The position numbers and the translations under genes were made by a program. From NCBI GenBank assembly GCA_965223905.1, contig CBDCXV010000010.1, positions 1,024,001 to 1,088,000 on the forward strand: a DNA stretch of 64,000 nucleotides, written 5' to 3'. Shown piece after piece: positions 1 through 64,000 of this stretch. Positions within the stretch are counted from its first letter, which is position 1. Each line of letters begins with the position of its first letter. The notes under the pieces are model-generated. The model was not told the origin of the DNA. It ran no database searches and saw only the letters and a list, made by a program, of their open reading frames with translations. The DNA comes from Candidatus Latescibacterota bacterium (GTDB taxonomy: Bacteria > Latescibacterota > UBA2968 > UBA8231).

Positions 1-135
1 AGTCATGGTTCTCCTTTACACGGGACAGGTCGCCCAACCAGCGTTGCCGGCCGCTTGCCCGTACCCTCGATAATGGGCTTTGTACAACCCACTCAACCCG
101 CTGCATACACTATCAAATCCCGCCTCAGAAGCCCG

Positions 136-1290
136 ATGAAAATCACCGATATCCGCACGCTCTCGCTCTCGCGCGCCCACGAGCCGGAACGCCAGTGGTA
201 CAGCGCCACCTTCCACGTGCCCAAGGCCGACTGCTCGATCTGCATCATCGAGACCGACGAGGGTTTGCAGGGAATCGCCGAGCCTTGCGCGTACGGAATG
301 CCGCCCGAAATCGCCGCTCGCATCGACGAACTCAAGCCCGGTCTCATCGGCCGCGACCCTCGCGGCGAGGACCTTACACCGCACAACGAAGCGGTGCGCG
401 CCAACGACATCGCCAACGCCGGCCTCAACTGCGCGCTGTGGGATTTGCGCGGCAAGATCGCCGGCAAACCGACCGCCGACCTGCTCTGCGCTCCCGGGCA
501 GGACCCCCTGCGCCGCCTCCGCCTCTACGCCTCCTCGGGCGTGCGCTACGACTGGGACGACCGCCCCGAGTCCGTGATCGAAGAGGCGATCGGCTACGCC
601 GAAGAGGGCTTCACCGCCTACAAGATGCGCCTCGGCACCCACTGGGCCTGGTCGGGCGTCACTGTCGACCGCTTCCTGAAAATAGCGCGCCAGGTTCACG
701 AGGCCGTGGGTGCGCGCATGGACCTGGCCCTCGACGGCAACTGCCGCCTCTCGATGGAGGAGGCGCTGCCCATCGCCGAGGTTCTCGACGGGATGGGCTG
801 GGCCTGGTTCGAAGAGCCGGTCGAACGCGTGCCCGCGGACTACGCCCGGCTAAACGAGGCCGTCTCCATCCCCATCACCGGCGGCGAACCTTTTACCACC
901 TGGGAGCAGTTCGAGCCGTTCATGGAGGCGGGGGGCTTCGGCATCGTCCAGCCCGACGCCGGCGTCTGCGGCATCGACCTCTGCATGGAGGTCGGCGGCA
1001 AGGCTTACTTCGACTACGGCGGCATACCCCTGATTCCGCACAACTGGCACAACGGCCTGATGACGATGGCCAACGCCCACATGGTCGCGGCGCTGCCCGA
1101 TCCGCGCCTGGTCGAGCTGAACATGAAGCAGGGTCCCCTGCAGTGGAAGATCCTGCGCGAGAAACCGCCGATCGAAGACGGCCATCTGGTTCTGCCCGAC
1201 GCCCCGGGCTTCGGCGTCGAACTGGCCGACGATCTCGAGGCGCGCTTTCCGTACATCGAAGGCTCCTGGGGCGATCCCGTAGAACGCTGA
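136..1290 (+). CDS. Mandelate racemase/muconate lactonizing (enolase superfamily) enzyme
   Basis: MKITDI start, ETDEGLQGIAE, ALWDLRGK, KMR (KxK-like), DGN, WFEEP, GGE, QPDAG, PDAPGFGVE motifs. Confidence 0.9.
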   Translation: MKITDIRTLSLSRAHEPERQWYSATFHVPKADCSICIIETDEGLQGIAEPCAYGMPPEIAARIDELKPGLIGRDPRGEDLTPHNEAVRANDIANAGLNCALWDLRGKIAGKPTADLLCAPGQDPLRRLRLYASSGVRYDWDDRPESVIEEAIGYAEEGFTAYKMRLGTHWAWSGVTVDRFLKIARQVHEAVGARMDLALDGNCRLSMEEALPIAEVLDGMGWAWFEEPVERVPADYARLNEAVSIPITGGEPFTTWEQFEPFMEAGGFGIVQPDAGVCGIDLCMEVGGKAYFDYGGIPLIPHNWHNGLMTMANAHMVAALPDPRLVELNMKQGPLQWKILREKPPIEDGHLVLPDAPGFGVELADDLEARFPYIEGSWGDPVER

Positions 1291-11608: not shown

Positions 11609-12495
11609 ATGCGGTCGTTGAAACGGACGGACTCACCAAGACGTTCTCCGGGGCAAGGGCCCTCGATGGCGTTGACCTGTCGCTTCCCCGCCATTCGATC
11701 ATCGGCCTCATCGGCCGCAACGGCAGCGGCAAGACCACGCTCGTCCGTCATATCGTCGGACTCTACCTGCCGACGGCGGGCACCTGCTCGACCCTGGGCA
11801 CGCCCAGCCATCGGCTGGGTCCTTCCGAGTTGTCACGAATCGGCGTGGTGCACCAGGAGAGCCGTCTGCTGGAGTGGATGAAGGTCGGCCAGCACCTGCG
11901 CTACGTCGGCTCCTTCTACGAGCGCTGGGACCGAGAACTCGAGCGGCGCCTGCTAGACGAGCTCGAGCTCGATGCCAGGCAGCGCGTCCGCCATCTGTCC
12001 GGCGGGGACCTGCAGAAGCTGGCCATCATTCTGGCCGTGTGTCATCGGCCGCAGCTGCTCCTGCTCGACGAACCGCTATCCGGCCTCGACCCGATCGTGC
12101 GTGAACAGGTGCTCAACTACCTGGTGGAAACACTGGATGAGAAGACCCATACCATCGTCGTTTCCTCCCACATCCTGCGCGACATCGAGAGGATCGTCGA
12201 CCGCGTCGTCTGTCTCGACCGGGGCAGGTTGAAAGCCCACGCAGCGCTCGATCAGCTGCAGGAGTCGTACGCCGAATGGGAGGTCAGGCCGTCCGAAGGG
12301 GCGCTGCCGGAGCGTTTCGCCGAACCCTACGTGCTCTCCCAGGACTGCAGCCCCCGGCTGGCCCGCCTCGTGGTGCGCCAGCCCTCCTCAAGGGATCTGC
12401 AGGCGTTCGAAGCAAAGCATTCCGCCGAGGTCAGCCGCAAACCCCTCAACCTGGAAGCGCTGTTTCCCCTGCTGTTGGCGGAGGATGAACGATGA
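11605..12495 (+). CDS. ABC transporter ATP-binding protein, YtrB-like (copy 1)
   Basis: GRNGSGKTT, LSGG, LLLDEP, SSH; ATGA overlap. Confidence 0.95.
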   Translation: MNAVVETDGLTKTFSGARALDGVDLSLPRHSIIGLIGRNGSGKTTLVRHIVGLYLPTAGTCSTLGTPSHRLGPSELSRIGVVHQESRLLEWMKVGQHLRYVGSFYERWDRELERRLLDELELDARQRVRHLSGGDLQKLAIILAVCHRPQLLLLDEPLSGLDPIVREQVLNYLVETLDEKTHTIVVSSHILRDIERIVDRVVCLDRGRLKAHAALDQLQESYAEWEVRPSEGALPERFAEPYVLSQDCSPRLARLVVRQPSSRDLQAFEAKHSAEVSRKPLNLEALFPLLLAEDER

Positions 12496-13880
12496 GCTTC
12501 CTGACCAGCTTCTACCTGTTACTGGCAAAGTCCCCCTCGCTCTTATTCCTAGGGATATCCTGCCTCGCATTTGCTTTGCTGGTATTCTCCTCGCATGGCG
12601 AGTTCCCCCCTGGATGGACGTTTTGGTTTTCGTTTTTAATCGGCACTTTTGTGGCGAATGTGTTCTTGGATAAGATGCATTGCTTCTTCACCTGGACGCT
12701 GCCCGGCTGGCGCCGTCGTCTGGCCGGGTGGGTATTGGTCAGCGGAATCGCTGTCGCGTTGCTATCGACGACAGTGGCTACCGGGTTGGGTCTGCCCTGG
12801 ATCCTGTCACCATTGATGCTCCTCTCCTACTTATTAGGTGTCTACCAATACTTAGGTGTCTACCAATTGCCCCGCAACCACCTAAGCAGGCTAGTTTTAT
12901 TTTTTCTTTTCTTACTGATTGTCCTGTTCATTGCAGATGAAGTCGTGGCCTTTTGCCTCCATCACCCTGCTCTGACTCTGGCCGGGACGGTCATCGCCTG
13001 CTCTGCCAATCTGTACTCTGCTCTGAATGTGCGGTCTGCGCCACAGTGGCTTTTCGAGCCGATTGGCCAGGAGCGGCAACGCCGTTGGCGAATGCCGTGG
13101 GGGCGGGATGTCGGCGATGTCTGGAAGGATGAGTTCCTCGGAGAGGGGATCGCGAACTGGCTCAGAGCCGGTCGCTACGAGACGTCCGGTCAGGTGGATA
13201 GGAGGTGGCCGATGGCGAGCTTATTCCTCTCCATGTTCACCATGTTTTTTACCCTCGTGGTTGGCTACATCCTGAGTTCGAAGAGAGGGGATGGCTCATG
13301 GGTCCACAGCCACTTCGCAGTAACGTTGACCGGCTCACCGCCCATGGAGACCGCTCTGCTGATAACGGTATCCTTCATTGTGTGTATGTGCTTCTTCCCA
13401 GGCACAATGTCGTCGTTCTCGCTCCGCCAGGGCTGGCTTTACCCCCTGTCGCGAGTACAGCTGGCCCATCTCACCTACTTTGGCAGCCTGTTACAAGCTC
13501 TGAGCTTCACCCTCATACTGGGGGCCTGTTTCGTCGTTGCAGGAGCGCTGGTCGGCCATCTGATCGGGCGGGGCTATTCTCTGGCCGACTCCAGTAGAAT
13601 ACTGGGCCTGACCGCCTGGGGTCCCGTCTATGCTCCTTTGATGCAATGGGCCCATCACACCATGATGGATTCGAAGCTCCGGCCGAAATCCGGATTGCCG
13701 CTGGCCGTCTATGGTTTGTTCGTCCTCTTGCCCTGGGGTTTTGCCGGCCTCTGCCATCAGTACCTGCTCGCGGCGATCGGGGCCTACACCTTCGCCCTGC
13801 TCGGCGTTCTGTTCGCGGCGCTGCAGGCATGCTATTTCTTCGGCCTGAGGAGATATTACGCACGGGCAGATCTCATCTGA
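12492..13880 (+). CDS. Polytopic membrane protein, putative ABC permease (copy 1)
   Basis: About 12 hydrophobic segments; ATGA-coupled to the ATPase. Confidence 0.8.
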   Translation: MSFLTSFYLLLAKSPSLLFLGISCLAFALLVFSSHGEFPPGWTFWFSFLIGTFVANVFLDKMHCFFTWTLPGWRRRLAGWVLVSGIAVALLSTTVATGLGLPWILSPLMLLSYLLGVYQYLGVYQLPRNHLSRLVLFFLFLLIVLFIADEVVAFCLHHPALTLAGTVIACSANLYSALNVRSAPQWLFEPIGQERQRRWRMPWGRDVGDVWKDEFLGEGIANWLRAGRYETSGQVDRRWPMASLFLSMFTMFFTLVVGYILSSKRGDGSWVHSHFAVTLTGSPPMETALLITVSFIVCMCFFPGTMSSFSLRQGWLYPLSRVQLAHLTYFGSLLQALSFTLILGACFVVAGALVGHLIGRGYSLADSSRILGLTAWGPVYAPLMQWAHHTMMDSKLRPKSGLPLAVYGLFVLLPWGFAGLCHQYLLAAIGAYTFALLGVLFAALQACYFFGLRRYYARADLI

Positions 13881-14059
13881 TTTCCCGAGGTGTTGCACGA
13901 ACGTCGTTACAATTCGCGGATCCTTCACGTGAGTGCATTGCGGGGGTTCCCATCGCTGCTCGGCAGGGTGAGTCGGAGAGGATGGAAATCGGTCTTCCGA
14001 CCACAGAAGTTCATCCCCATGATAGATGAGAACCGAAGCACAGCTTCCGCGCTTTCCGA

Positions 14060-14413
14060 AGCGGCGTGCCGGTGTTCAGGCAGATCATGGACCAGGTCAA
14101 ATTCCACATCGCCAGCGGCTTGATCGGTCCGGATGACGAGTTGCCGTCGACGCGCGCCCTGTCCACCGAGCTCGGGCTGAACCCGATGACGGTCAGCAAG
14201 GCGTACAGCCTGCTGGAGGCGGAAGGGGTGGTGGAGCGTCGGCGCGGACGGCCTCTCACCGTGAGGGCCCGGCCCGAGCCGGAAATGAAGGCGAGCAGGA
14301 TCGAACAGCTGCAGCCCCAGCTCAAGGCCCTGGCAACCAGGGCGCGACAGCTGGGTCTGAGCAGGAAGCAGGTCATCGAGCTGCTGCGCGACGCCATGCG
14401 TGACGCGGAGTAA
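14060..14413 (+). pseudogene. GntR/YtrA copy 2, lacking the first ~7 codons and the operator
   Basis: Near-identical to copy 1 from agcggcgt onward; upstream sequence unrelated; may still start at GTG 14066. Confidence 0.7.
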
Positions 14414-55954: not shown

Positions 55955-56127
55955 TGCCTGCTAGTGCCTGCGCGCGTAACGCGCGTAAGTAGACGTACGA
56001 ACGAGGGCGAGGACCAACTACGTCCTTGCGCCGATGCGCCCGGCTCGCAAGGCGCCCTGAGCGAGTCGTACCGGGGGTGTACGGCGAGCGAAGGCAACGC
56101 CGCTGTCGGGAACAGTGGAAAAAATGA
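55951..56127. repeat. Truncated CTAG-ended MITE, related to 44591..44757
   Basis: ctagtgcctg x2, then the shared core cggctcgcaaggcg...gtgtacggcgagcga.ggcaacgccgc. Confidence 0.65.
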
Positions 56128-57570
56128 GGCTCGTCAGTAGAATTGGTGGGTGAATTGGGGTTCGGGTAAATCGCCAAGCTGATGAAATGAAGCGATTTGG
56201 AGTGCCTTGAAGGTGCGGAATCCGAAGGCTTTTCTCACCGTCAGATTCCATTTCAGGTTCAAGCCCTCGACCATGCCGTTGTTGAACTGCTTGTGAGCCC
56301 GGAACCAATTGAGGAGGAGCTCTTGATGGCGGCGCAGCATCTTGGCGACGTCTTTCATCGGTTCGATGGTGCTTCGCATCGTGCGGAAACACCAGCGGTG
56401 GAGGAAGTTCTCTGCCCAGGCGGGGTAGGTGTAGTCCCAAAAGCGCTGGAAGTCCTCCTTCAGCAGGTAAGCTTTGACGGTGCGCAGGTTCATCTTCAAG
56501 AGCTCGGACAGCTTCAAGTCCTGGGTGTCGGTGAGGTTCTCCTTGCGCTTGAGGAAGCACCAGCGGCTCTTGCACAGGACGGGATCCTGGCCCTCCTCTT
56601 TGAGTCTGCGGGTCTCTTCGGCACGGACTTTGTCGAGGGCCTTGCTGAAGTGCTGCATGAGGTGAAAGCGGTCGAGAATGTGGACCGCCGCCGGGAGCCG
56701 ATTGCCGATGACGGTGAGGTAGGCTTTCCAGATATCTGAGCAGATGACGGCGATCTGGCCCAGGAAACTGGTCGGCTCCTTCTCGCCGGCCGCTTCTTGC
56801 TTGCGCTGGTGCTCTTGCTCCAGTTCGGTAAAGCCGTCGTCCAAGGTCTGCTTCGTCCGCTTTTGGCCCATCCACAACAACCGGCGGCGGTGCGTGTCGA
56901 TCTGGTACAGCAGGGTCAGATAATGATGGCCCTTACCAAACTGAATTTCATCCACGCCGAGGGCGGTGACTTGGTCGAGGCGGCGATGGGTGAGCCCATA
57001 GTCCACGACGTACTGGACGGAATGGTAGACCTTGTCCCAGCTGGTCCGGAAGGAGCGCGCCACCTCCGTCCACGACAGCTTTTTGGCCCACCGCGCCAGG
57101 AAACACCGGTAGATGTCGGTCAGGTGGTGCTTGCCCGTGCTCCAGGGGACCTTCTCGACGACCACCCGGCCGCAGCCTTTGCAGGCAACCCGGCGCATCC
57201 GATACACCAGAAAGACCGGGAATCCCCACAGCGGAACAAACTCGAACCGCCGTGCAGCGGTGGCCGTGTCATAGGTCGGGGACAACTGACCGCAGCCGCT
57301 GCACTGGGCCCTGGAGTTCTTTCGGGGCCTCAGGCGCACCATGATCCTTCCGTGCTCGTCAAAGCCACTCTCTTCAAACACAAACCGCTTGAATTTCGTG
57401 CACCGGTTCAGTACCGTGATCAGGCGCATCATTCCCACCAGGGTAAGTCGGGATCGGTCTTCGGCGACTGTCCCAACATACCGGGGATGATGCGCCTGGG
57501 CTATCCTCGGCTTCCTCTATGCCCATCAGCGCTCGCGGGCCCTTTCACCCACAGATTCTGCGGAGGAGCC
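56128..57570 (-). mobile_element. ISL3 family insertion sequence
   Basis: Ends ggctcgtcagtagaattggtgggtgaa / ttcacccacagattctgcggaggagcc are imperfect IRs. Confidence 0.9.
56134..57438 (-). CDS. ISL3 transposase
   Basis: CSGC..CKGC Zn finger, LGVDEI, CSDIW, DRFH, NGMVEGLN, AFGFR. Confidence 0.95.
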   Translation of the reverse strand: MGMMRLITVLNRCTKFKRFVFEESGFDEHGRIMVRLRPRKNSRAQCSGCGQLSPTYDTATAARRFEFVPLWGFPVFLVYRMRRVACKGCGRVVVEKVPWSTGKHHLTDIYRCFLARWAKKLSWTEVARSFRTSWDKVYHSVQYVVDYGLTHRRLDQVTALGVDEIQFGKGHHYLTLLYQIDTHRRRLLWMGQKRTKQTLDDGFTELEQEHQRKQEAAGEKEPTSFLGQIAVICSDIWKAYLTVIGNRLPAAVHILDRFHLMQHFSKALDKVRAEETRRLKEEGQDPVLCKSRWCFLKRKENLTDTQDLKLSELLKMNLRTVKAYLLKEDFQRFWDYTYPAWAENFLHRWCFRTMRSTIEPMKDVAKMLRRHQELLLNWFRAHKQFNNGMVEGLNLKWNLTVRKAFGFRTFKALQIASFHQLGDLPEPQFTHQFY

Positions 57571-58162
57571 AAAAATTGAATAAGGCACCTCTGCTCTTCT
57601 TGATTTTATCAGGCTTAGGTTCTTTTGCACGAGCATAGGCTTTGAGGATGATGTCCACTGGAAATTTCCTGCAGTAATTCTTGTAAAGACGAAGATTCTT
57701 CATGTCATCCAATCCATCCGCGATTCGGTATGCCAGCTGATTCTCTGGGGTAGATGACTCGGTGTCCCCATTCTTGCTGTGGACATCCCTGCGATCGCTA
57801 TCGCCAGTATATAAATCAGGAGAAGAAGAATAGCTATCGTAGGGAATTGGTACAGCGATTTTTGCGACAGCGATTTCCGTTGGGGACAACGATTCCCCTG
57901 TGTTTTTCGGGATTTCATAGATGGACAAGCGTGATTGATTGAAACCTCGGCGATACCCAATCTTACCCTGCTTTGTCAAGCTCAACACAGCCCTGTTCGT
58001 GGTGTTCACCGAGAGCCTGCAGTGCTGGGCAAGTTTGCGCATGGACAGCATGAACCTGCCGCCAGCTCCTCCGCACAGGCTTTCCAAGGTCCAATACACC
58101 ACTGCTTCTGATGGACGTTCAAAGTGCGGCAATGCTTTGGATTGTGATTGCGATTGCTTCAT
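57571..58162 (-). CDS. wHTH replication-initiator-like protein, extreme C-terminus cut by ISL3
   Basis: SMRKLAQHCRLSVNTTNRAVLSL HTH; C-terminal KIKKSRGALFNF runs into the IS end. Confidence 0.55.
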
Positions 58163-58461
58163 GCTGAATGAGATGAATGCTCGTCTTGGCGCTTCTGGAA
58201 CAGCTCCACGCGCCTGCGGCCCACTGGGTCATAGATTTCATCAAACAAGCGCGGATAAATATCCCTGATTGGCCGTTGCAAAGCTGCCTCCAGCTTTATC
58301 ACGGTCTTGATGGATGGCAGTTTGCGGCCTGCCTCCATATGAGAAAGAGAGCTGACGCTTTCGTAGCCCATAATGCGCGCCAGTTCCCGCTGTTTCAGTC
58401 CCTTTTCCTTGCGTAATTGCCGAATTCGGTTTGGGTACCGAGTAGATGATGATCCCTCCAT
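58159..58461 (-). CDS. XRE-family HTH regulator
   Basis: NRIRQLRKEKGLKQRELARIMG..SLSHMEAGRKLPS. Confidence 0.9.
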   Translation of the reverse strand: MEGSSSTRYPNRIRQLRKEKGLKQRELARIMGYESVSSLSHMEAGRKLPSIKTVIKLEAALQRPIRDIYPRLFDEIYDPVGRRRVELFQKRQDEHSSHSA

Positions 58462-58749
58462 AGGATTATTGTATCGTGAGAATACGATTACTGCTGATAC
58501 GCTTTACAATACCAAACCCACCACCCTATCCAAGCGGGGCTGAGTTGTTTCAGGAGATACATTAGAGGAAACATGAATTCCAGATAAATAAGAGATGAAA
58601 TAGTCTTCAAGAGAGAGATGCCAAGTTGTGATTGATATACCCGCAGTTTCCTGTGAGCCTATCAATCGATATCACCCTGGTTGTCCACAGTTATTGATGC
58701 GGTTGAGCGAAAGCCGAGCTGTAAAGGTCATCTATTGCGGCTCTGCGCG

Positions 58750-59463
58750 TCATACGACAACACTACCTTCATATACTTTCAACGTGCATCCGATGTCTTT
58801 GGCAATAGAGGACGCCAACTTTTCATACTGTCTTGGGACTACTATGAAGTCTATATCTTCATTGGAAAATCTCAACGCGTAACAGATGTCCTTAGCATGG
58901 CCGGAAACATTGTCAAGAGTAATATCTCCCACTTTGGCATCATTCAGTTTGAAATTATCTCCCTTCATTCTCACATCAATAGGCAAACGCCATTCGCGCT
59001 GGTCGTAATTAGGAATTTCGTTACCGCACGTGTCCGTGTGGCTATACTCCTGTAGAAGAGCGAGTGCAAGTAAGAGAGCGTTCACTTGGTCTGCAGTGAT
59101 ATCTGTTTCATTCCACCCTGAATCCACTTCCTTGTCGTGCATTTACGCCGCAACTTTAAGCAGTGGATTGAAAACATCTTTAAGAGCCGCACAACTCACG
59201 TATGCGACTGGACGGACACCGTATTTGTACAGAGTTTCACGATTGAAACCGATTCCTATTTTGCCAAATTTCTGACAGATGAAACGGCAATCCTGCAGCG
59301 GTATCTCCGTGAAACACACCATGCGTATTTTGTACTTCGGATTCCCTCTGAAACGGTCTGCGTACGTGAGGCGCAATAAACGCGACTTGCATATGTTTCG
59401 GAGAACGTCAAGGGCTTCTGCTTCGGTTTTCCCGCGACCTGTCCAGTGAATCAATTGTCCCAT
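58750..59463 (-). pseudogene. AbiGi-like abortive-infection protein split by an in-frame TAA (59143-59145)
   Basis: LIHWT, MVCFTEIPL, FGKIGIGF, GVRPVAY in the first ORF; YDQREWR in the contiguous same-frame second ORF. Confidence 0.7.
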
Positions 59464-59564
59464 GATTTCGGCTCCGAGTTTGTGGTTTAATTAGTCTAAT
59501 AGAGTGTCCCTTCTGGCAACATCACCCCCATTGCCCGCACCCGCCCGCCCGATATCATAAAGGC

Positions 59565-59759
59565 ATGCAGCTTACCCAAGAAGCGCTCAACGAATTCAAA
59601 CAGATCTACCGCGAAGACCTCGGCATCAACCTTACCAATGAGGAGACGCTGGGCCTGGCCACTTCCTTTTTCAATCTCATGCAAGCCGTCTACCGTCCCC
59701 TTCCAGACGACGAATCCTATAGCGAAGATTGCACCCCCGACCAAGACGTGGTAGACTGA
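59565..59759 (+). CDS. Small helical protein upstream of the serine recombinase
   Basis: MQLTQEALNEFKQIYREDLGINLTNEE..LMQAVYRP; upstream TTGCCC..TATCAT promoter-like sequence. Confidence 0.65.
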   Translation: MQLTQEALNEFKQIYREDLGINLTNEETLGLATSFFNLMQAVYRPLPDDESYSEDCTPDQDVVD

Positions 59760-59930
59760 CCCCGTTGACCCGTCCACAGAGCAACCCGTAAGATTTTTGG
59801 TTCGCATTGCTGGCCCCAAAGGGGCGGTCTGCCAACAATACAACTCCTTACGGGGCGCGTGGGTTGGGTCAACCAGGCGCTCCTTTTGGTTTACCGTCCG
59901 AAGCTTCAGCAAGGACGGCTCCTCATCACT

Positions 59931-61712
59931 ATGAACCCACCATCATCAACCCCAATCAAATACCTCATCTACGCGCGCAAATCCGCGGAAAGCGAAGACA
60001 AGCAAGTCGCATCCATTGATTCCCAGATAAAGGAGCTGCAAGACATAGCCCAGCGTGACAATCTGGAGATAATTGACGTTCTCTCCGAATCCAAGTCTGC
60101 CAAGGCCCCGGGCAGGCCAGTATTTGGAGGCCTCATTGCCCGTGTTTCACGGGGCGATGCAAACGGTATCCTGTGCTGGAAGCTGGACAGGTTAGCCCGC
60201 AACCCGGTTGACGGCGGCAATATCAGCTGGATGCTCCAGCAAGGTCTGATTCAGCACCTCCAGACCCATGAGCGCGGCTACTATCCCACGGACAATGTGC
60301 TCATGATGGCCGTGGAACTTGGAATGGCCAATCAGTTCATCCGCGATTTGAGTGAGAATACCAAACGAGGACTACGCGCCAAAGTTGAGCAGGGCTGGTA
60401 TCCGGGTGTTGCCAAACCTGGATACTTGAATGAGTTCCATCGCCAGAAAGGCGAACGCACCACTCCAAAAGATCCAATCCTCTTCCGGCTGCTTAGGCGC
60501 GCCTTCAATCTCATCCTCGCCGGCCAGGCTCCATCGCAGATATTAGACAAGCTCAACAATGAGTGGGGATTTCGCACGCTCAAACGGAGAAAACTCGGCA
60601 ACAAGCCCCTTGCCCGTAGCACCTTGTATCGGATTCTCGCGGACCCCTTTTATTACGGCCGCTTTGAGTATCCAGAGGGCTCAGGCAACTGGTATCAGGG
60701 CAAGCATACGCCCATGATTACGGAGGATGAATTCTGGCACATGCAAGAGCTCTTGGGCAAAGAGGGCAGGCCTCGCCCCCAAAAGCGCACCTTTGCGTTT
60801 ACTGGGTTGATGTCCTGTGGCGAATGCAATGCTGCCATCACTGCTCATGCCAAAGAACAAGTCATCTGCTCGGTCTGCAAACGCAAGTTCGCCTGCAAGA
60901 ATCGCTCAGCTTGTCCAGCCTGCAATACCAACATCGCCGAAATGCGCGCGCCTAAACACTTACACTACGAATACTACCATTGCACCAAGCGCAAGATTCC
61001 CTCGTGCTCCCAGGGAGCCTTGGAAGTCAAGAAGCTTGAAGCCCAAGTCAGTGAACTTCTCGCGTCCCTCACCATCCCGGAGCGCCTCAAAGACTGGTAC
61101 CTGAAGCAAATAGAAAACGCAGCAGAAACAGAGATTGATGAACAGACCGCCGTCCGAAACTCCCTTCAGGATGCGATTGATGATTCCAAGAAGCGCGTCA
61201 ACAACCTACTGGCGCTCAAAATATCATCCCAAAATTCCAACGGCGACCTTTTGAGCGACGAAGAATTCGCTGCCCAGAGGACAGCGTTGACCCGTGAGAT
61301 GAACCAGCTCAAACAAAAAATGGCCAGCATAGAAAAACATGCCGACCACTGGAGAGACGCCTGTGCAAAGACCTTTAACTTCGCCTGTTGCGCCGAAGGC
61401 CACTTCAAAAATGGCTCACCAGAGACCAAACGAGCCATTCTCGCTGCCCTTGGTTTGAACCTAACTCTTATGAACAAAAAACCCCGAATTTCCTTGCACA
61501 AACACTTCATCTTGATGCAGAAAATCCACCAGGGAGTCAAAGCCCAAAACGGTAGGTTTGAACCTTAAAATTTCCGCCAACCTAAAGGAAAAAACAGGGT
61601 TCTTGACCCTGCTTTTTCCACATGGCTCCGAGGGTGGGACGAAGTTAGAACCCATTTCATGAAATCCACAACAAGTATCCGCATCCCCGACCTCACACCA
61701 CCAAATCCGTAG
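59931..61712 (+). CDS. Large serine recombinase; probable premature TAA at 61566-61568, frame continues to 61712
   Basis: YARKS, WKLDRLARN, recombinase domain, Zn ribbon with a CxxC insert, coiled coil. Confidence 0.9.
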
Positions 61713-61874
61713 ATCACCTCGCCTTATTGTAACGACCTGCAGACAATTGGTAAATCCACCGAACACCTCAATTGCCGCCGCATCCGACCATACGGCGACC
61801 TATTGCGAGAATTCCACGATTCCATTATACTGCCCATATAAGCACTATTAAGAAGCGGTACTATCACGGAGGCT

Positions 61875-62925
61875 ATGAACATGAACGATCCTAAAATCAC
61901 GTACTTTCCCGTCGGCAATGGAGACACCAGCCTGATTCGCCTCTCCGACGAGACCGACATCATTATTGACTGTAACATCACCGAGGAATCCCAGGACGAT
62001 TCGGAGAGCGCCCGCTACGATGTTCGCAGTCATTTGCTGAAATCCCTCAAGAAGAGGGATGGGGTCTCGTATGCAGACGCTTTTGTCCTAACTCACCCAG
62101 ACCAAGACCACTGCCGTGGATTTGCGGAGACCTTCTATACTGGCAATCCCGCCCAGTACAGCGATTCTCATAAACGGGATGGTCTCATTCTCATTGATGA
62201 ATTGTGGTTTTCGCCGCGCATTTTTTCTCCGCACGAGGATGAGCTGAGCGAACCTGCCAAGGCGTTCCACAAAGAGGCCAAGCGGAGAATGAAGCTCTAT
62301 CAGGACGGAGCGTCAGAGCGGAGCAACTCTGGCAACCGGCTCCGCATTATCGGCTACTCGGACAACCCTGAGCTTGAAGGCTTGGAAGCTATCATTACCG
62401 CGCCTGGCAACTATATCAATCTCATCAACGACAGCGTTAAGGATGACTTCTCGTTCTTTGTGCATGCTCCCTTCCGCAAGGATACTGATTCAAAATGGGG
62501 CGAGCGCAACGATACCAGCGTAGTCCTGCACACCCAATTTGAAGTAGATGGTGACGAGCGAGCTGGTTTAGCATTCTTCGGCGGTGACGCTGGATGCTCC
62601 ATATGGGAAGAGATCCTTGAAAAAAGTGATGACGATACTTTAGAGTGGGATTTGTTTATGGCGCCGCATCACTGCTCCTGGACTTTTTTCAGTGAAGAGC
62701 CTTACAAAGACAACCAAGTGCCGAGCGAGAAATCTTTGGAAATCCTCGGGAAGAAGCGCGAGGGGGCCCTTGTGGTGGCCCCCTGCAAGCCCATCAAAGA
62801 CGATGACGACAACCCGCCCCACTACGCCGCCGCCGAAGAGTATAAGGAAGTTGTCGGAGAGGAAAATTTTCTCGCCACGATGGAACACCCTGACGAGGAA
62901 CATCTGCTCCCAATTGAGTTTGAAA
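61875..62925 (+). pseudogene. ComEC/Rec2-like metallo-beta-lactamase-fold hydrolase, truncated by IS1380
   Basis: FPVGNGD, THPDQDH, NDTSVV, GGDA, APHHCS. Confidence 0.8.
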
Positions 62926-64000
62926 CCCTAACGTTGCATAAATCGGGCTTGGAACGTGTGCTTGCCGTCAAGCCGCCTTGTGAAGCGCGTCGATGAAATG
63001 CAACAAGTCGTTTTCGACCATGGGATTGGGGGTGAGCGTTAGCGTCAAGTTTCCCTGGGGCTGCGTGAGACGACCAGCGCGCTGGATGAAGCGGTGACGG
63101 AGGGTGTCCAGCGTCTGGAATAACCAGGCGGCCGGGCGCTTGGCACGGGAGTAAGTGGAACGCGGATGGGCCAGCATTTGTATCTCTCGTCCCAGGTTAT
63201 GCGCCATCATCGCACACAGCGTGACCATCTGGTTGCCGACCAACCGCCGGGTGGGGATCAAATCAAGGCCGGCGTGCTGCCTGGCCTCAGCGAAAATGCC
63301 TTCCTGAGAGCCGCGGCCATGGTGGAAGAGGAGCACGCTGCGAGCTGAGCCCATCTTGTTGGTGACGACGACGCGGTAGTCGTAGTCGACGACGCGGGGC
63401 TCGAACAGATCCAGTTGCAGGGGGCCCTTCACCTGGCGTCGCACCTGGTGTCGCACAAACAGGAAGCGGTATGTAGCCGGCCACGATTTCGGCTTCCAGT
63501 CGCTTTCGAAGTAGCAGCGCTCGCCATCCAGATGACGCCAGCGACGCCGCGACTCGATCATCTGCTTGAGCACGGCAAAGCGTTCGAAAGGGACGCTGAC
63601 TGTGCACTCGACGCCATACAGGTCCATGAGGGTCAGCGTCTTCTGGTTGAAGAAGGCACTATCCATGCGGGATTCGAGCACGACCTTGGGGAAGGCGGCA
63701 CGGACGCGGTCGAAGTTGACTATCATGAATTCATGCGCCCCCTTGCTGTCATGGACATTGCCGGATCGGTGAAGGACATCGAGAAACTGTCCGGTCTGAG
63801 CCACGGTGGCAAACAGGTTGTAGTAACTGCGGGCGCCCTTCTTCTTGGTGTTGTATCCGACGGCGGTGCCTTCGGCGTGTCCCTGCGTAGACACCACCGA
63901 GCCATCGAAGTCCAGGGTCAAGCGGGCCAGCTGTTCCCGCTCCAGGCCCTCGACCACCAGCGCTGAAGAAAGCGCGCGCACCTGCTCGACACTCTTTCGA
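62926..64000 (-). mobile_element. IS1380 family element; transposase 62968..>64000 runs off the window
   Basis: [27 protein letters not shown]; end ccctaacgttgcat. Confidence 0.9.

Follow-up and report, generated by a model that had tools for sequence, protein, structure and literature searches.

Within a window of 64,000 nucleotides (nt) from the genome of a Candidatus Latescibacterota bacterium (GenBank assembly GCA_965223905.1, contig CBDCXV010000010.1, positions 1,024,001 to 1,088,000), we have analysed an island of low-GC DNA that carries the gene for a large serine recombinase (LSR). We believe that this island is probably the horizontally acquired and inactivated remnant of a small, LSR-mobilised, defence-carrying element, in which a recombinase core and its cargo formed one unit. 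The core consists of winged-helix (wHTH) and XRE-family regulatory genes, an open reading frame (ORF) encoding 64 amino acids (aa) and the LSR gene, and the cargo consists of an AbiGi-like gene and the two genes of an anti-phage system called 6A-MBL. The original prediction, made from the DNA of the window, described a compact defence-carrying element of a type exchanged between episymbionts of the candidate phyla radiation (CPR, or Patescibacteria) and a host lineage, and considered it a candidate for an undescribed system. The compact and defence-carrying character agrees with what we find among relatives of the LSR, which are likewise compact and accompanied by defence genes. However, the system itself is not undescribed, because its genes match the named 6A-MBL models with 389 bits (NF058524) and 541 bits (NF058523).

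A foreign island in a large genome

The host assembly (G000 below) comprises 11 contigs and 7.92 Mb with a GC content of 0.64, and the window (G000:C10:1024001-1088000) lies midway in a 2.18-Mb contig, C10. Given a genome of 7.9 Mb and contigs of 2 Mb, the host is not a CPR bacterium. The continuation of the island was read as a further stretch called L002 (C10:1080001-1100000), whose positions are converted to window coordinates by adding 56000. Left of window position 57500 the GC content is 0.61-0.71, and across 57500-63000 it is 0.44-0.55. The lower-GC block that had been predicted is thus present, with its drop at 57500 and with all listed genes in their places. Its end had been placed at 62925, which proves too early, as low GC runs on to approximately C10:1093440, 5.4 kb past the end of the window. 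The island measures 11.9 kb, or 10.3 kb with a GC content of 0.50 after subtraction of an IS1380-type insertion sequence (IS).

Two further genomes of the same genus yield no match to the LSR profile. In one of these (G103), a gap of 84 nt separates the counterpart of the island's left-flank gene (88% nucleotide identity) from the sequence homologous to C10:1143895-1159087. Relative to G103, the host therefore has an extra 63.9 kb at this site (C10:1079955-1143894, beginning at window position 55955; GC 0.58), of which the island is the leftmost part. An ISL3-family IS stands at either end of this segment, as a full copy on one side and, with equal orientation, as a truncated copy with an internal deletion (C10:1143381-1143888) on the other. 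The other 50 kb hold ordinary metabolic genes and genes for surface proteins with type IX secretion signals, and a probe gene cluster taken from them has matches only at the level of paralogs in the genomes G103 and G104. An esterase-like gene on the right flank was not found in four relatives and is thus of no use for delimiting an empty site. The GC content of 0.50 against 0.64, the missing LSR in both genomes of the same genus and the lack of the segment in G103 together argue for a foreign origin of the island.

One alternative is that the island entered the assembly as a chimera joined at IS copies, since the ISL3-family IS is multi-copy and short-read contigs break within it. Nevertheless, this explanation is most improbable, because public contigs from two studies bridge the ISL3 end, the island and the IS1380-type IS, and again the IS1380-type IS, the island and the host genes, at a depth equal to that of the flank. 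In sequencing run X3, a contig of 5741 nt equals L002 1474-7214 and one of 12,697 nt equals L002 7817-16000 plus host genes, both with 0 differences and with a depth of 13-15 that is equal on island and flank. The same pieces are present in run X5, from another study with another organism code, where they show 7 and 4 differences. Only IS copies are found in runs X7 and X8. The chimera for which the prediction had asked a check can thus be dismissed at the right-hand host flank. The location of the window midway in a 2.18-Mb contig and the record of the same LSR protein from two contigs also speak against a chimera.

A cross-phylum recombinase family with a small partner

The LSR exceeds the Pfam cut-offs for the Resolvase (PF00239, 67.7 bits) and Recombinase (PF07508, 37 bits) domains, and its zinc ribbon (PF13408, Zn_ribbon_recom) scores 23.4 bits, slightly under the cut-off of 25.3. 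It matches a PHROG integrase (E=3e-59) and is present as a single copy in the genome. All of the peptide motifs that the original prediction had named as CPR signatures were found in the translations, and those of the LSR coincide with conserved blocks of the family consensus; across the family alignment, the residues R-K-S of the YARKS block hardly vary. A search with the LSR protein gave 4559 matches among 8000 scored candidates, the best of which, other than itself, are metagenomic, 60-72% identical and mostly 590-596 aa long.

A profile scan of genomes, with one genome per species, gave at least 576 LSR relatives among 600 matched stretches, and a metagenome scan gave 111 among 411. We used the best 80 of the former and 80 of the latter, or 160 loci in all. 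The best 80 of the at least 576 genome loci carry 44 CPR labels, 30 labels of other phyla and six without label, and their LSRs are 35-49% identical to that of the window, except for the partial loci L050 and L064 at 55-60%. At E<=1e-80, matches to the LSR profile occur in 81 of the 301 Patescibacteria genomes sampled, compared with 5 of 301 for Verrucomicrobiota (the seed genome counted) and 3 of 168 for the host's phylum (G000 counted), although many of the Patescibacteria matches span only the first 310 profile positions, such that these counts describe a broad family. With this distribution, and with 44 CPR labels among the best 80 loci, the notion that the LSR motifs are a CPR signature is upheld. 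The two other matches in the host's phylum, G030 (a 2.4-kb contig, GC 0.47, 49% identity) and G093 (GC 0.40, 39%), may be binning noise. Only five relatives were found in a collection of 2.9 million viral contigs.

A tree was built from 105 LSR sequences, namely those of the window, of the search matches P0002-P0025, of five named proteins and of 75 among the 80 loci; five rows that were short or interrupted were left out. The window falls into a fully supported clade of 21 members, which are 20 metagenome proteins and one partial protein from Peregrinibacteria. CPR and non-CPR labels are interleaved throughout this tree. We found no description of this LSR family, or of its 64-aa partner, in the literature.

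The LSR is closely linked to the small ORF upstream. A profile of the 64-aa ORF finds a match in 130 of the 160 loci, although 37 of these matches are given by construction, because the hidden Markov model was built from 37 members out of the same loci. In 123 of the 130, the match lies upstream of the LSR gene on the same strand, at a distance of 5-4170 nt. When only loci with more than 3 kb of upstream sequence are considered, the ORF is found in 110 of 115 (35/36 CPR, 20/21 non-CPR and 55/58 unlabelled loci), which makes it a conserved LSR companion, in keeping with its proposed status as a CPR-type signature. Its predicted structure is a two-helix hairpin (helices 5-19 and 25-42) with a disordered acidic tail (pLDDT 83.7). 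The protein has no match in Pfam, PHROG or NCBIfam, no BFVD match at E<=0.001, and a best PDB profile match of E=0.041. Judging from this linkage and from the modelled shape, the 64-aa protein might be a cofactor of the LSR that perhaps sets the direction of recombination.

The order of the core genes is also conserved, as the prediction had proposed should be examined. Loci L084 and L088, which are among the closest relatives, match the window in all four genes and in their order (wHTH, XRE, small ORF and LSR). On contigs of less than 2.5 kb each, L087 shows the XRE gene, the small ORF and the LSR, and L086 the small ORF and the LSR. The XRE protein matches PHROG transcriptional repressors, and its homologs at the same place in L084, L087 and L088 are 61-73% identical. 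The wHTH gene had been called rep-like, a label that we cannot confirm. Its HTH_36 score of 22.4 bits is below the Pfam cut-off of 25, scans of PHROG and NCBIfam give no match, and the predicted model consists of a winged helix (residues 17-83), a disordered linker and a C-terminal domain of four helices. A Foldseek search of the PDB returned nothing at E<=0.001, and the PDB profile and Foldseek results consist of generic winged-helix regulators and one initiator N-terminal domain (E=0.02-0.03).

Homologs of the wHTH protein are few. A large protein collection contains only 56, mostly of 190-290 aa, of which the one with a name comes from a metagenome-assembled genome of Latescibacteria. Several of these homologs lie on contigs equal in length to those of near-clade LSR matches. 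The 301 Patescibacteria genomes yield one weak match (E=6.7e-5), to the C-terminal part only, which does not support the proposal that the tail of this protein is a CPR signature. In L084, the closest full relative, a divergent RuvC-like gene (1-462, minus strand) stands directly beside the wHTH gene; it scores 28.4 bits with Pfam RuvC and may be cargo of that element.

A presumed attachment site in the recombinase tail

The LSR gene was correctly recognised in the prediction, with the motifs of its family, but its reading frame is not complete. A TAA codon directly follows ...GRFEP, and behind it another 47 codons stay in frame up to 61712 and correspond to the tail that longer relatives conserve (Table 1). 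The LSR profile match in the genome extends across this codon ('1 TAA') to C10:1085697. DNA homology to L084, L085 and L088 stops at 61628-61699. We presume that the tail region is the attachment site of the family and that the window carries it in its unrecombined type.

We sorted 112 informative loci by their tails, using a regular expression of our own making. At 73 of these, a tRNA gene lies on the opposite strand no more than 300 nt after the LSR gene, in most cases with a tail that is antisense to the tRNA. A further 16 have an intact ..VRT.. tail and no tRNA, as do the window and L085, and 23 belong to neither group. The CPR loci divide among tRNA-linked, intact-tail and neither as 25, two and nine, and the non-CPR loci as eight, six and nine. 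Six tRNA-linked loci have 16-23 nt of the tRNA end repeated 6-10 kb upstream, which provides the sizes of these elements. At five intact-tail loci (L023, L149, L158, L065 and L126), 31-92 nt of the tail region recur as a direct repeat 1.5-8.4 kb downstream. These downstream repeats enclose genes of the kinds found in defence systems and might mark the boundary of a cassette.

No second copy of the window's tail region exists within L002 1-14600, and ARAGORN found no tRNA gene in L002. A tRNA-like stretch after the LSR gene is not recognised as a tRNA by ARAGORN and corresponds to the coding tail of the recombinase. We also rejected as an attachment site a 35-nt match of L002 13400-13434 in a contig of run X3, because the genome has no second copy and the match lies within a 220-aa ORF.

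Directly behind the LSR gene, seven of the ten intact-tail loci examined carry genes of defence kinds (L021, L023, L039, L060, L065, L149 and L158). These include STAND NTPases with a phosphoesterase domain, PHP-ATPases, a UvrD helicase, NYN proteins and an E2/E1/DUF6527 operon. Given this arrangement, a position of the 6A-MBL genes downstream of the LSR is ordinary for this class. Cargo in other relatives lies upstream and includes restriction-modification, Gabija-like and ABC-3C genes. The operon just mentioned (DUF6527/ThiF/Prok-E2_E; L039, from Limisphaerales, 11961-14076, minus strand) is another ubiquitin-like conjugation module that is carried as cargo directly behind an LSR.

A 6A-MBL system interrupted at its conjugation tail

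Both genes of the main cargo pass equivalog cut-offs of NCBIfam, and the cargo is thus the named 6A-MBL anti-phage system. The MBL-fold enzyme scores 389.2 bits with NF058524 ('6A-MBL_enzyme'; cut-off 220) over profile positions 1-341 of 346, and the fusion protein encoded next to it scores 541.1 bits with NF058523 ('6A-MBL_cap2_3'; cut-off 320) and matches the PADLOC models E1-E2 (E=1e-27) and JAB (E=1e-25). The prediction of an MBL hydrolase was therefore right as to fold and place, but the protein is the enzyme of a system that already has a name. Parts of Iyer, Burroughs and Aravind (2006; PMC1779556) classify this two-gene operon as type 6a, and passages of more recent reports name 6A-MBL and list it among defence systems that are active against phages (PMC13276650; 10.1101/2025.09.30.679545).

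A search with the MBL-fold protein gave 1366 homologs among 3945 scored candidates, those listed being mostly 380-387 aa long. Among the best 120 homologs, 58 end in ...YG, and most others end in YG followed by one or two residues. Homologs with names come from methanogens, Actinobacteria, Bradyrhizobium and Methylomirabilota, and tblastn finds the gene in 284 plasmid records. One of these, Clostridium perfringens plasmid NC_011412.1, has the MBL gene overlapping a 760-aa 'ThiF family' gene in the same order as here. Neither the MBL gene nor the E2-E1-JAB gene was found in any of the 160 LSR-related loci.

In the window, the MBL frame departs from the family sequence after ...LPIEFE and enters the IS1380-type IS, such that the present ORF ends in IS-derived residues and is without the C-terminal ...TYG tail. 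The missing 34 codons (...TPQTYG) are located just past the IS (L002 8482-8585), where they end in a stop codon that overlaps with the start of the E2-E1-JAB gene, an ATG. The two pieces sum to 1155 nt, or 384 aa. Hence the order of the 6A-MBL genes is right and their adjacency is broken by 1551 nt of IS1380-type DNA between MBL codon 350 and the last 34 codons. By cutting off the last 34 codons, the insertion has removed the conjugation handle of the enzyme and uncoupled the two genes. As far as can be judged from sequence, this 6A-MBL system is very probably inactive.

The second defence gene, AbiGi, had been predicted at its correct place. The gene is indeed there, but it is split by an in-frame TAA that is identical in the contigs of runs X3 and X5. 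Its N-terminal half scores 32.7 bits with Pfam AbiGi (cut-off 22.4), its C-terminal half scores 19.5 bits, which is below the cut-off, and PADLOC reports AbiGi with E=2.5e-8. An AbiGi gene is found at none of the 160 related loci, and the gene is an insert peculiar to this copy.

Lesions and the state of the element

The island bears four lesions. The ISL3-family IS replaces approximately the last 20 residues of the wHTH protein, as judged from the 218-aa homolog of L084, which has about 20 residues more after FNF. In-frame TAA codons split AbiGi and remove the conserved 47-residue tail of the LSR, and the IS1380-type IS now stands between the MBL gene on one side and the ...TYG tail with the E2-E1-JAB gene on the other. 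As its genes now read, the element is dead in its present state.

The two TAA codons could be explained in another way, namely by a donor in which TAA encodes an amino acid. Ten other stops in the island (those of nine genes and of the displaced LSR tail) are TGA or TAG, and the only TAA codons at which an ORF ends are the two in-frame ones. Even so, this proposal can be rejected with near certainty, because L084 and L088 end several genes in TAA, including the XRE homolog, and 25 of 50 members of the 64-aa family do the same. Since TAA is a terminator in these relatives, the two codons in the island are nonsense mutations and do not reflect a different genetic code.

The ISL3-family IS is bounded by 27-nt terminal inverted repeats (56128-56154 and 57544-57570), and its flanks, AAAAATGA and AAAAATTG, are similar and not identical. 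A full copy with 89% identity lies at C10:1009743-1011185, and fragments are found elsewhere in the genome. To the left of this IS, a repeat of about 75 nt (window 56028-56103) recurs at no fewer than 12 places on contigs C1, C8 and C11 with 89-97% identity, and resembles repetitive extragenic palindromes or miniature inverted-repeat transposable elements of the host. The IS1380-type unit is flanked on both sides by a duplicated TGAAA, and a 1552-nt public contig of run X7 equals exactly this unit (L002 6926-8477). The genome has no other full copy of it, and a relative with 74% identity is present on contig C9. Nearly identical units in runs X7 and X8, which represent two other coded organisms without the island, indicate that this IS circulates more widely than the island does.

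Table 1. Features of the island and its edges. Positions are window coordinates unless L002 or C10 is given.
Feature	Position (strand)	Description
ISL3-family IS	56128-57570 (-); transposase 56134-57438 (-)	DDE_Tnp_ISL3, E=5e-66; left edge of the low-GC block
wHTH gene (earlier 'rep-like')	57571-58162 (-); ORF 57545-58162	205 aa; 3' end after ...ALFNF is ISL3 sequence
XRE-family repressor-like gene	58159-58461 (-)	HTH_3, E=4e-15; divergent from the 64-aa ORF and LSR
AbiGi-like pseudogene	58750-59463 (-)	In-frame TAA at 59143-59145, leaving 106 + 130 codons
64-aa ORF	59565-59759 (+)	100 nt upstream of the LSR ORF
LSR	59931-61568 (+); ORF 59859-61568	545 aa as now read; ended by a premature TAA
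Displaced in-frame LSR tail	61569-61712 (+)	47 codons, ...WLRGWDEVRT...; conserved palindrome at about 61587-61619
6A-MBL MBL-fold enzyme gene	61875-62925 (+); ORF to 62996; last 34 codons at C10:1088482-1088585	First 350 codons before the IS1380-type IS
IS1380-type IS	62926-64476 (-); transposase from 62968	458 aa; DDE_Tnp_1_4, E=1.4e-39; within the MBL gene
E2-E1-JAB fusion gene	L002 8578-10923	781 aa from ATG, frame uninterrupted; Prok-E2_A, ThiF and Prok-JAB in this order
239-aa membrane-like ORF	L002 10880-11599 (+)	Overlaps the end of the E2-E1-JAB gene; matches no family
90-aa HTH_36 protein		Opposite strand to the 239-aa ORF; right part of the island
186-aa HTH_3 protein		Right part of the island, beside the 90-aa HTH_36 protein
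220-aa ORF		PD-(D/E)xK-like motif (by eye only); right part of the island
Tyrosine-recombinase fragments	L002 13478-13936 (+) and 14028-14555 (-)	Opposed orientation; right edge of the low-GC block

One element or two neighbours

Although we favour a single element, several observations weigh against this reading and should be considered together. Neither the tail site nor a tRNA end is repeated anywhere in the island, which leaves its limits undefined and the unity of core and 6A-MBL unproven. The tyrosine-recombinase fragments at the right edge offer an alternative vehicle. In the close relatives L084 and L088, a tRNA follows the LSR with no gene in between and the cargo is located on the opposite side, and in L085, the nearest intact-tail relative, a large Ig-repeat surface protein and no defence gene is found behind the LSR. 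The role proposed for the 64-aa protein draws on its linkage to the LSR. Finally, on the left, where the host flank meets ISL3, coverage consists only of short contigs broken at this repeated IS, and the run that holds the island best may be the assembly's own source sample.

An alternative is that two unrelated islands became neighbours, one being a truncated LSR core (57571 to about 61712) and the other a 6A-MBL island brought in by the now-fragmented tyrosine recombinase. DNA homology to the LSR relatives ends at 61628-61699, where the elements of L084 and L088 also end, and the right part of the island has the recombinase fragments and a wHTH/HTH_3 pair of its own. However, the GC content of the core (0.501) equals that of the cargo (0.495), whereas the recombinase fragments have 0.57-0.62, and a 128-nt piece of these fragments recurs in the host genome. 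Defence genes also stand directly behind the LSR in other intact-tail relatives. For these reasons, we regard two separate islands as rather unlikely. The single element is preferred because the downstream position of its cargo is ordinary and the GC content of core and cargo is the same, which does not amount to proof.

The 128-nt piece (L002 14205-14331) has five further copies in the genome with 77-78% identity. To the right of the fragments, genes are host-like and include an erythromycin-esterase-family gene and ABC transporters. An Rfam scan of window 57400-63000 revealed no credible RNA. For the 239-aa membrane ORF, no sequence look-alike was found among previously catalogued findings.

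Origin of the element

The original prediction traced the element to the CPR, and for the LSR (81 of 301 Patescibacteria) and the 64-aa ORF such a link does exist, but it does not extend to the wHTH protein, with its one weak match in 301 genomes, or to the cargo. A recent arrival from a CPR episymbiont into its host lineage would be in accord with an LSR family that is about 20 times commoner in the sampled Patescibacteria than in the two other phyla, and with the Peregrinibacteria protein that is the sole named member of the window's LSR clade. Furthermore, a stretch of 1991 nt with the 64-aa ORF and the LSR is 80% identical between locus L019 (Paceibacterota, an 813-kb contig) and locus L025 (Verrucomicrobia), which demonstrates that the core does cross this boundary. 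The proposed exchange between CPR and other bacteria is thus supported by one pair of loci, but a CPR donor of the island is not demonstrated, given that the closest contigs have a GC content of 0.51-0.64.

Several other features also speak against a CPR donor. The GC content of these closest contigs, whose labels are mixed, compares with 0.30-0.45 in most CPR loci. The endonuclease IV gene of L084, used as a marker for its host in a protein atlas, pointed to a mixture of taxa and was uninformative. The only named wHTH homolog is from Latescibacteria, and the class with an intact tail and no tRNA is more a non-CPR trait (6/23 loci against 2/36 in CPR). Cargo homologs with names belong to methanogens, Actinobacteria, Bradyrhizobium and Methylomirabilota, and a homolog of the MBL gene is present in 284 plasmid records. 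In L019 the element is the higher-GC part of the locus, which fits a transfer into the CPR genome. We therefore consider a recent CPR donor unlikely. The stretch shared by the two loci spans 9703-11686 in L019 and 9732-11704 in L025, and in L019 it has a GC content of 0.44-0.55 within a background of 0.30-0.40.

A possible mechanism of the intact element

In its intact form, the core would have consisted of the wHTH gene and the XRE repressor gene, divergent from an operon of the 64-aa ORF and the LSR, with the 3' tail of the LSR overlapping the presumed attachment site. AbiGi would have been carried between the XRE gene and the 64-aa ORF, and 6A-MBL downstream of the LSR, possibly followed by the 239-aa membrane protein, the second wHTH/HTH_3 pair and the 220-aa PD-(D/E)xK-like ORF. 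The XRE protein might keep the operon off. Once the operon is switched on, the LSR would recombine the tail-borne site with a target, which in most relatives is the 3' end of a tRNA, with the 64-aa protein acting as a cofactor that perhaps sets the direction. According to the literature, and by analogy with type II CBASS, the E2-E1 portion of the 6A-MBL fusion would activate the C-terminal glycine of the MBL-fold enzyme and conjugate the enzyme to a target, the JAB portion would trim or reverse this conjugation, and the MBL fold would be the effector. During decay, the ISL3-family IS took the end of the wHTH gene and whatever stood to its left, the two TAA codons cut AbiGi and the LSR, and the IS1380-type IS separated the MBL tail.

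It seems appropriate to question what a single dead copy can contribute. The locus itself carries little weight, as it is a decayed mobile island in which a catalogued defence system has been disrupted by an IS. However, it provides a natural case of an IS striking exactly the conjugation tail of a 6A-MBL enzyme. It also reveals that a recombinase and small-ORF module common in the CPR is found in the large genomes of other phyla with a distinct intact-tail layout, and the survey adds counts for the CPR enrichment of this family and shows how regularly the small ORF accompanies the LSR. The wider interest lies in the recombinase family and its 64-aa partner, which are better pursued in intact relatives.

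Relation to known systems

LSRs are well known from integrative elements and phages, with phiC31, Bxb1, TP901-1 and SPbeta SprA as examples, and TP901-1 and SPbeta have small directionality factors. The present family has in common with known LSRs, such as CcrA/B/C of staphylococcal cassette chromosome (SCC) elements and XisF, a three-domain architecture and a small partner gene nearby. Among the named NCBIfam models, XisF scores best, with 78 bits where the cut-off is 375, and the family differs from the known LSRs in that its presumed attachment site lies in the gene's own tail. AbiG, which consists of AbiGi and AbiGii, shares with the island a gene with the AbiGi domain, but here this gene is split by a stop and AbiGii is absent from a PADLOC scan of seven island proteins.

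The 6A-MBL genes of the island agree with the known system in the order of the MBL-fold gene and the single E2-E1-JAB fusion gene, in the ...TYG tail of the family and in the stop/start overlap seen in NC_011412.1. They differ in the IS1380-type IS within the MBL gene and in an additional gene, for the 239-aa membrane protein, that overlaps the end of the E2-E1-JAB gene. According to a preprint (10.1101/2024.11.21.623953), the type II CBASS, Pycsar and MBL pathways each employ the fused E2-E1 for conjugation of their own enzymes, the targets being unknown. Cap2 and Cap3 of type II CBASS, to which the preprint draws the analogy, likewise combine a fused E2-E1 with a JAB peptidase acting on the C-terminus of the system's own enzyme. 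In contrast to type II CBASS, 6A-MBL has no CD-NTase and no cyclic-nucleotide effector, its JAB domain is fused to the E2-E1, and the partner is an MBL-fold protein.

The closest likeness is to the tRNA-targeting LSR elements common in the CPR. These have an LSR of the same or a closely allied family (35-49% identity to the 80 genome loci), a small ORF upstream on the same strand, defence cargo, and a site in the recombinase tail. The copy in the window differs from them in residing in a 7.9-Mb non-CPR genome, in having no tRNA, repeated site or inverted spare copy, and in being broken. We tentatively suggest, as an idea about which considerable doubt is in order, that all of these belong to a large, cross-phylum family in which the 64-aa protein is a dedicated cofactor, the attachment site lies in the LSR tail, and the intact-tail form gathers defence cassettes behind this site. 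If true, the form that collects cassettes would be represented in the window by a dead copy within a non-CPR genome, and cassettes would be captured by a serine recombinase somewhat as integrons capture theirs with a tyrosine recombinase.

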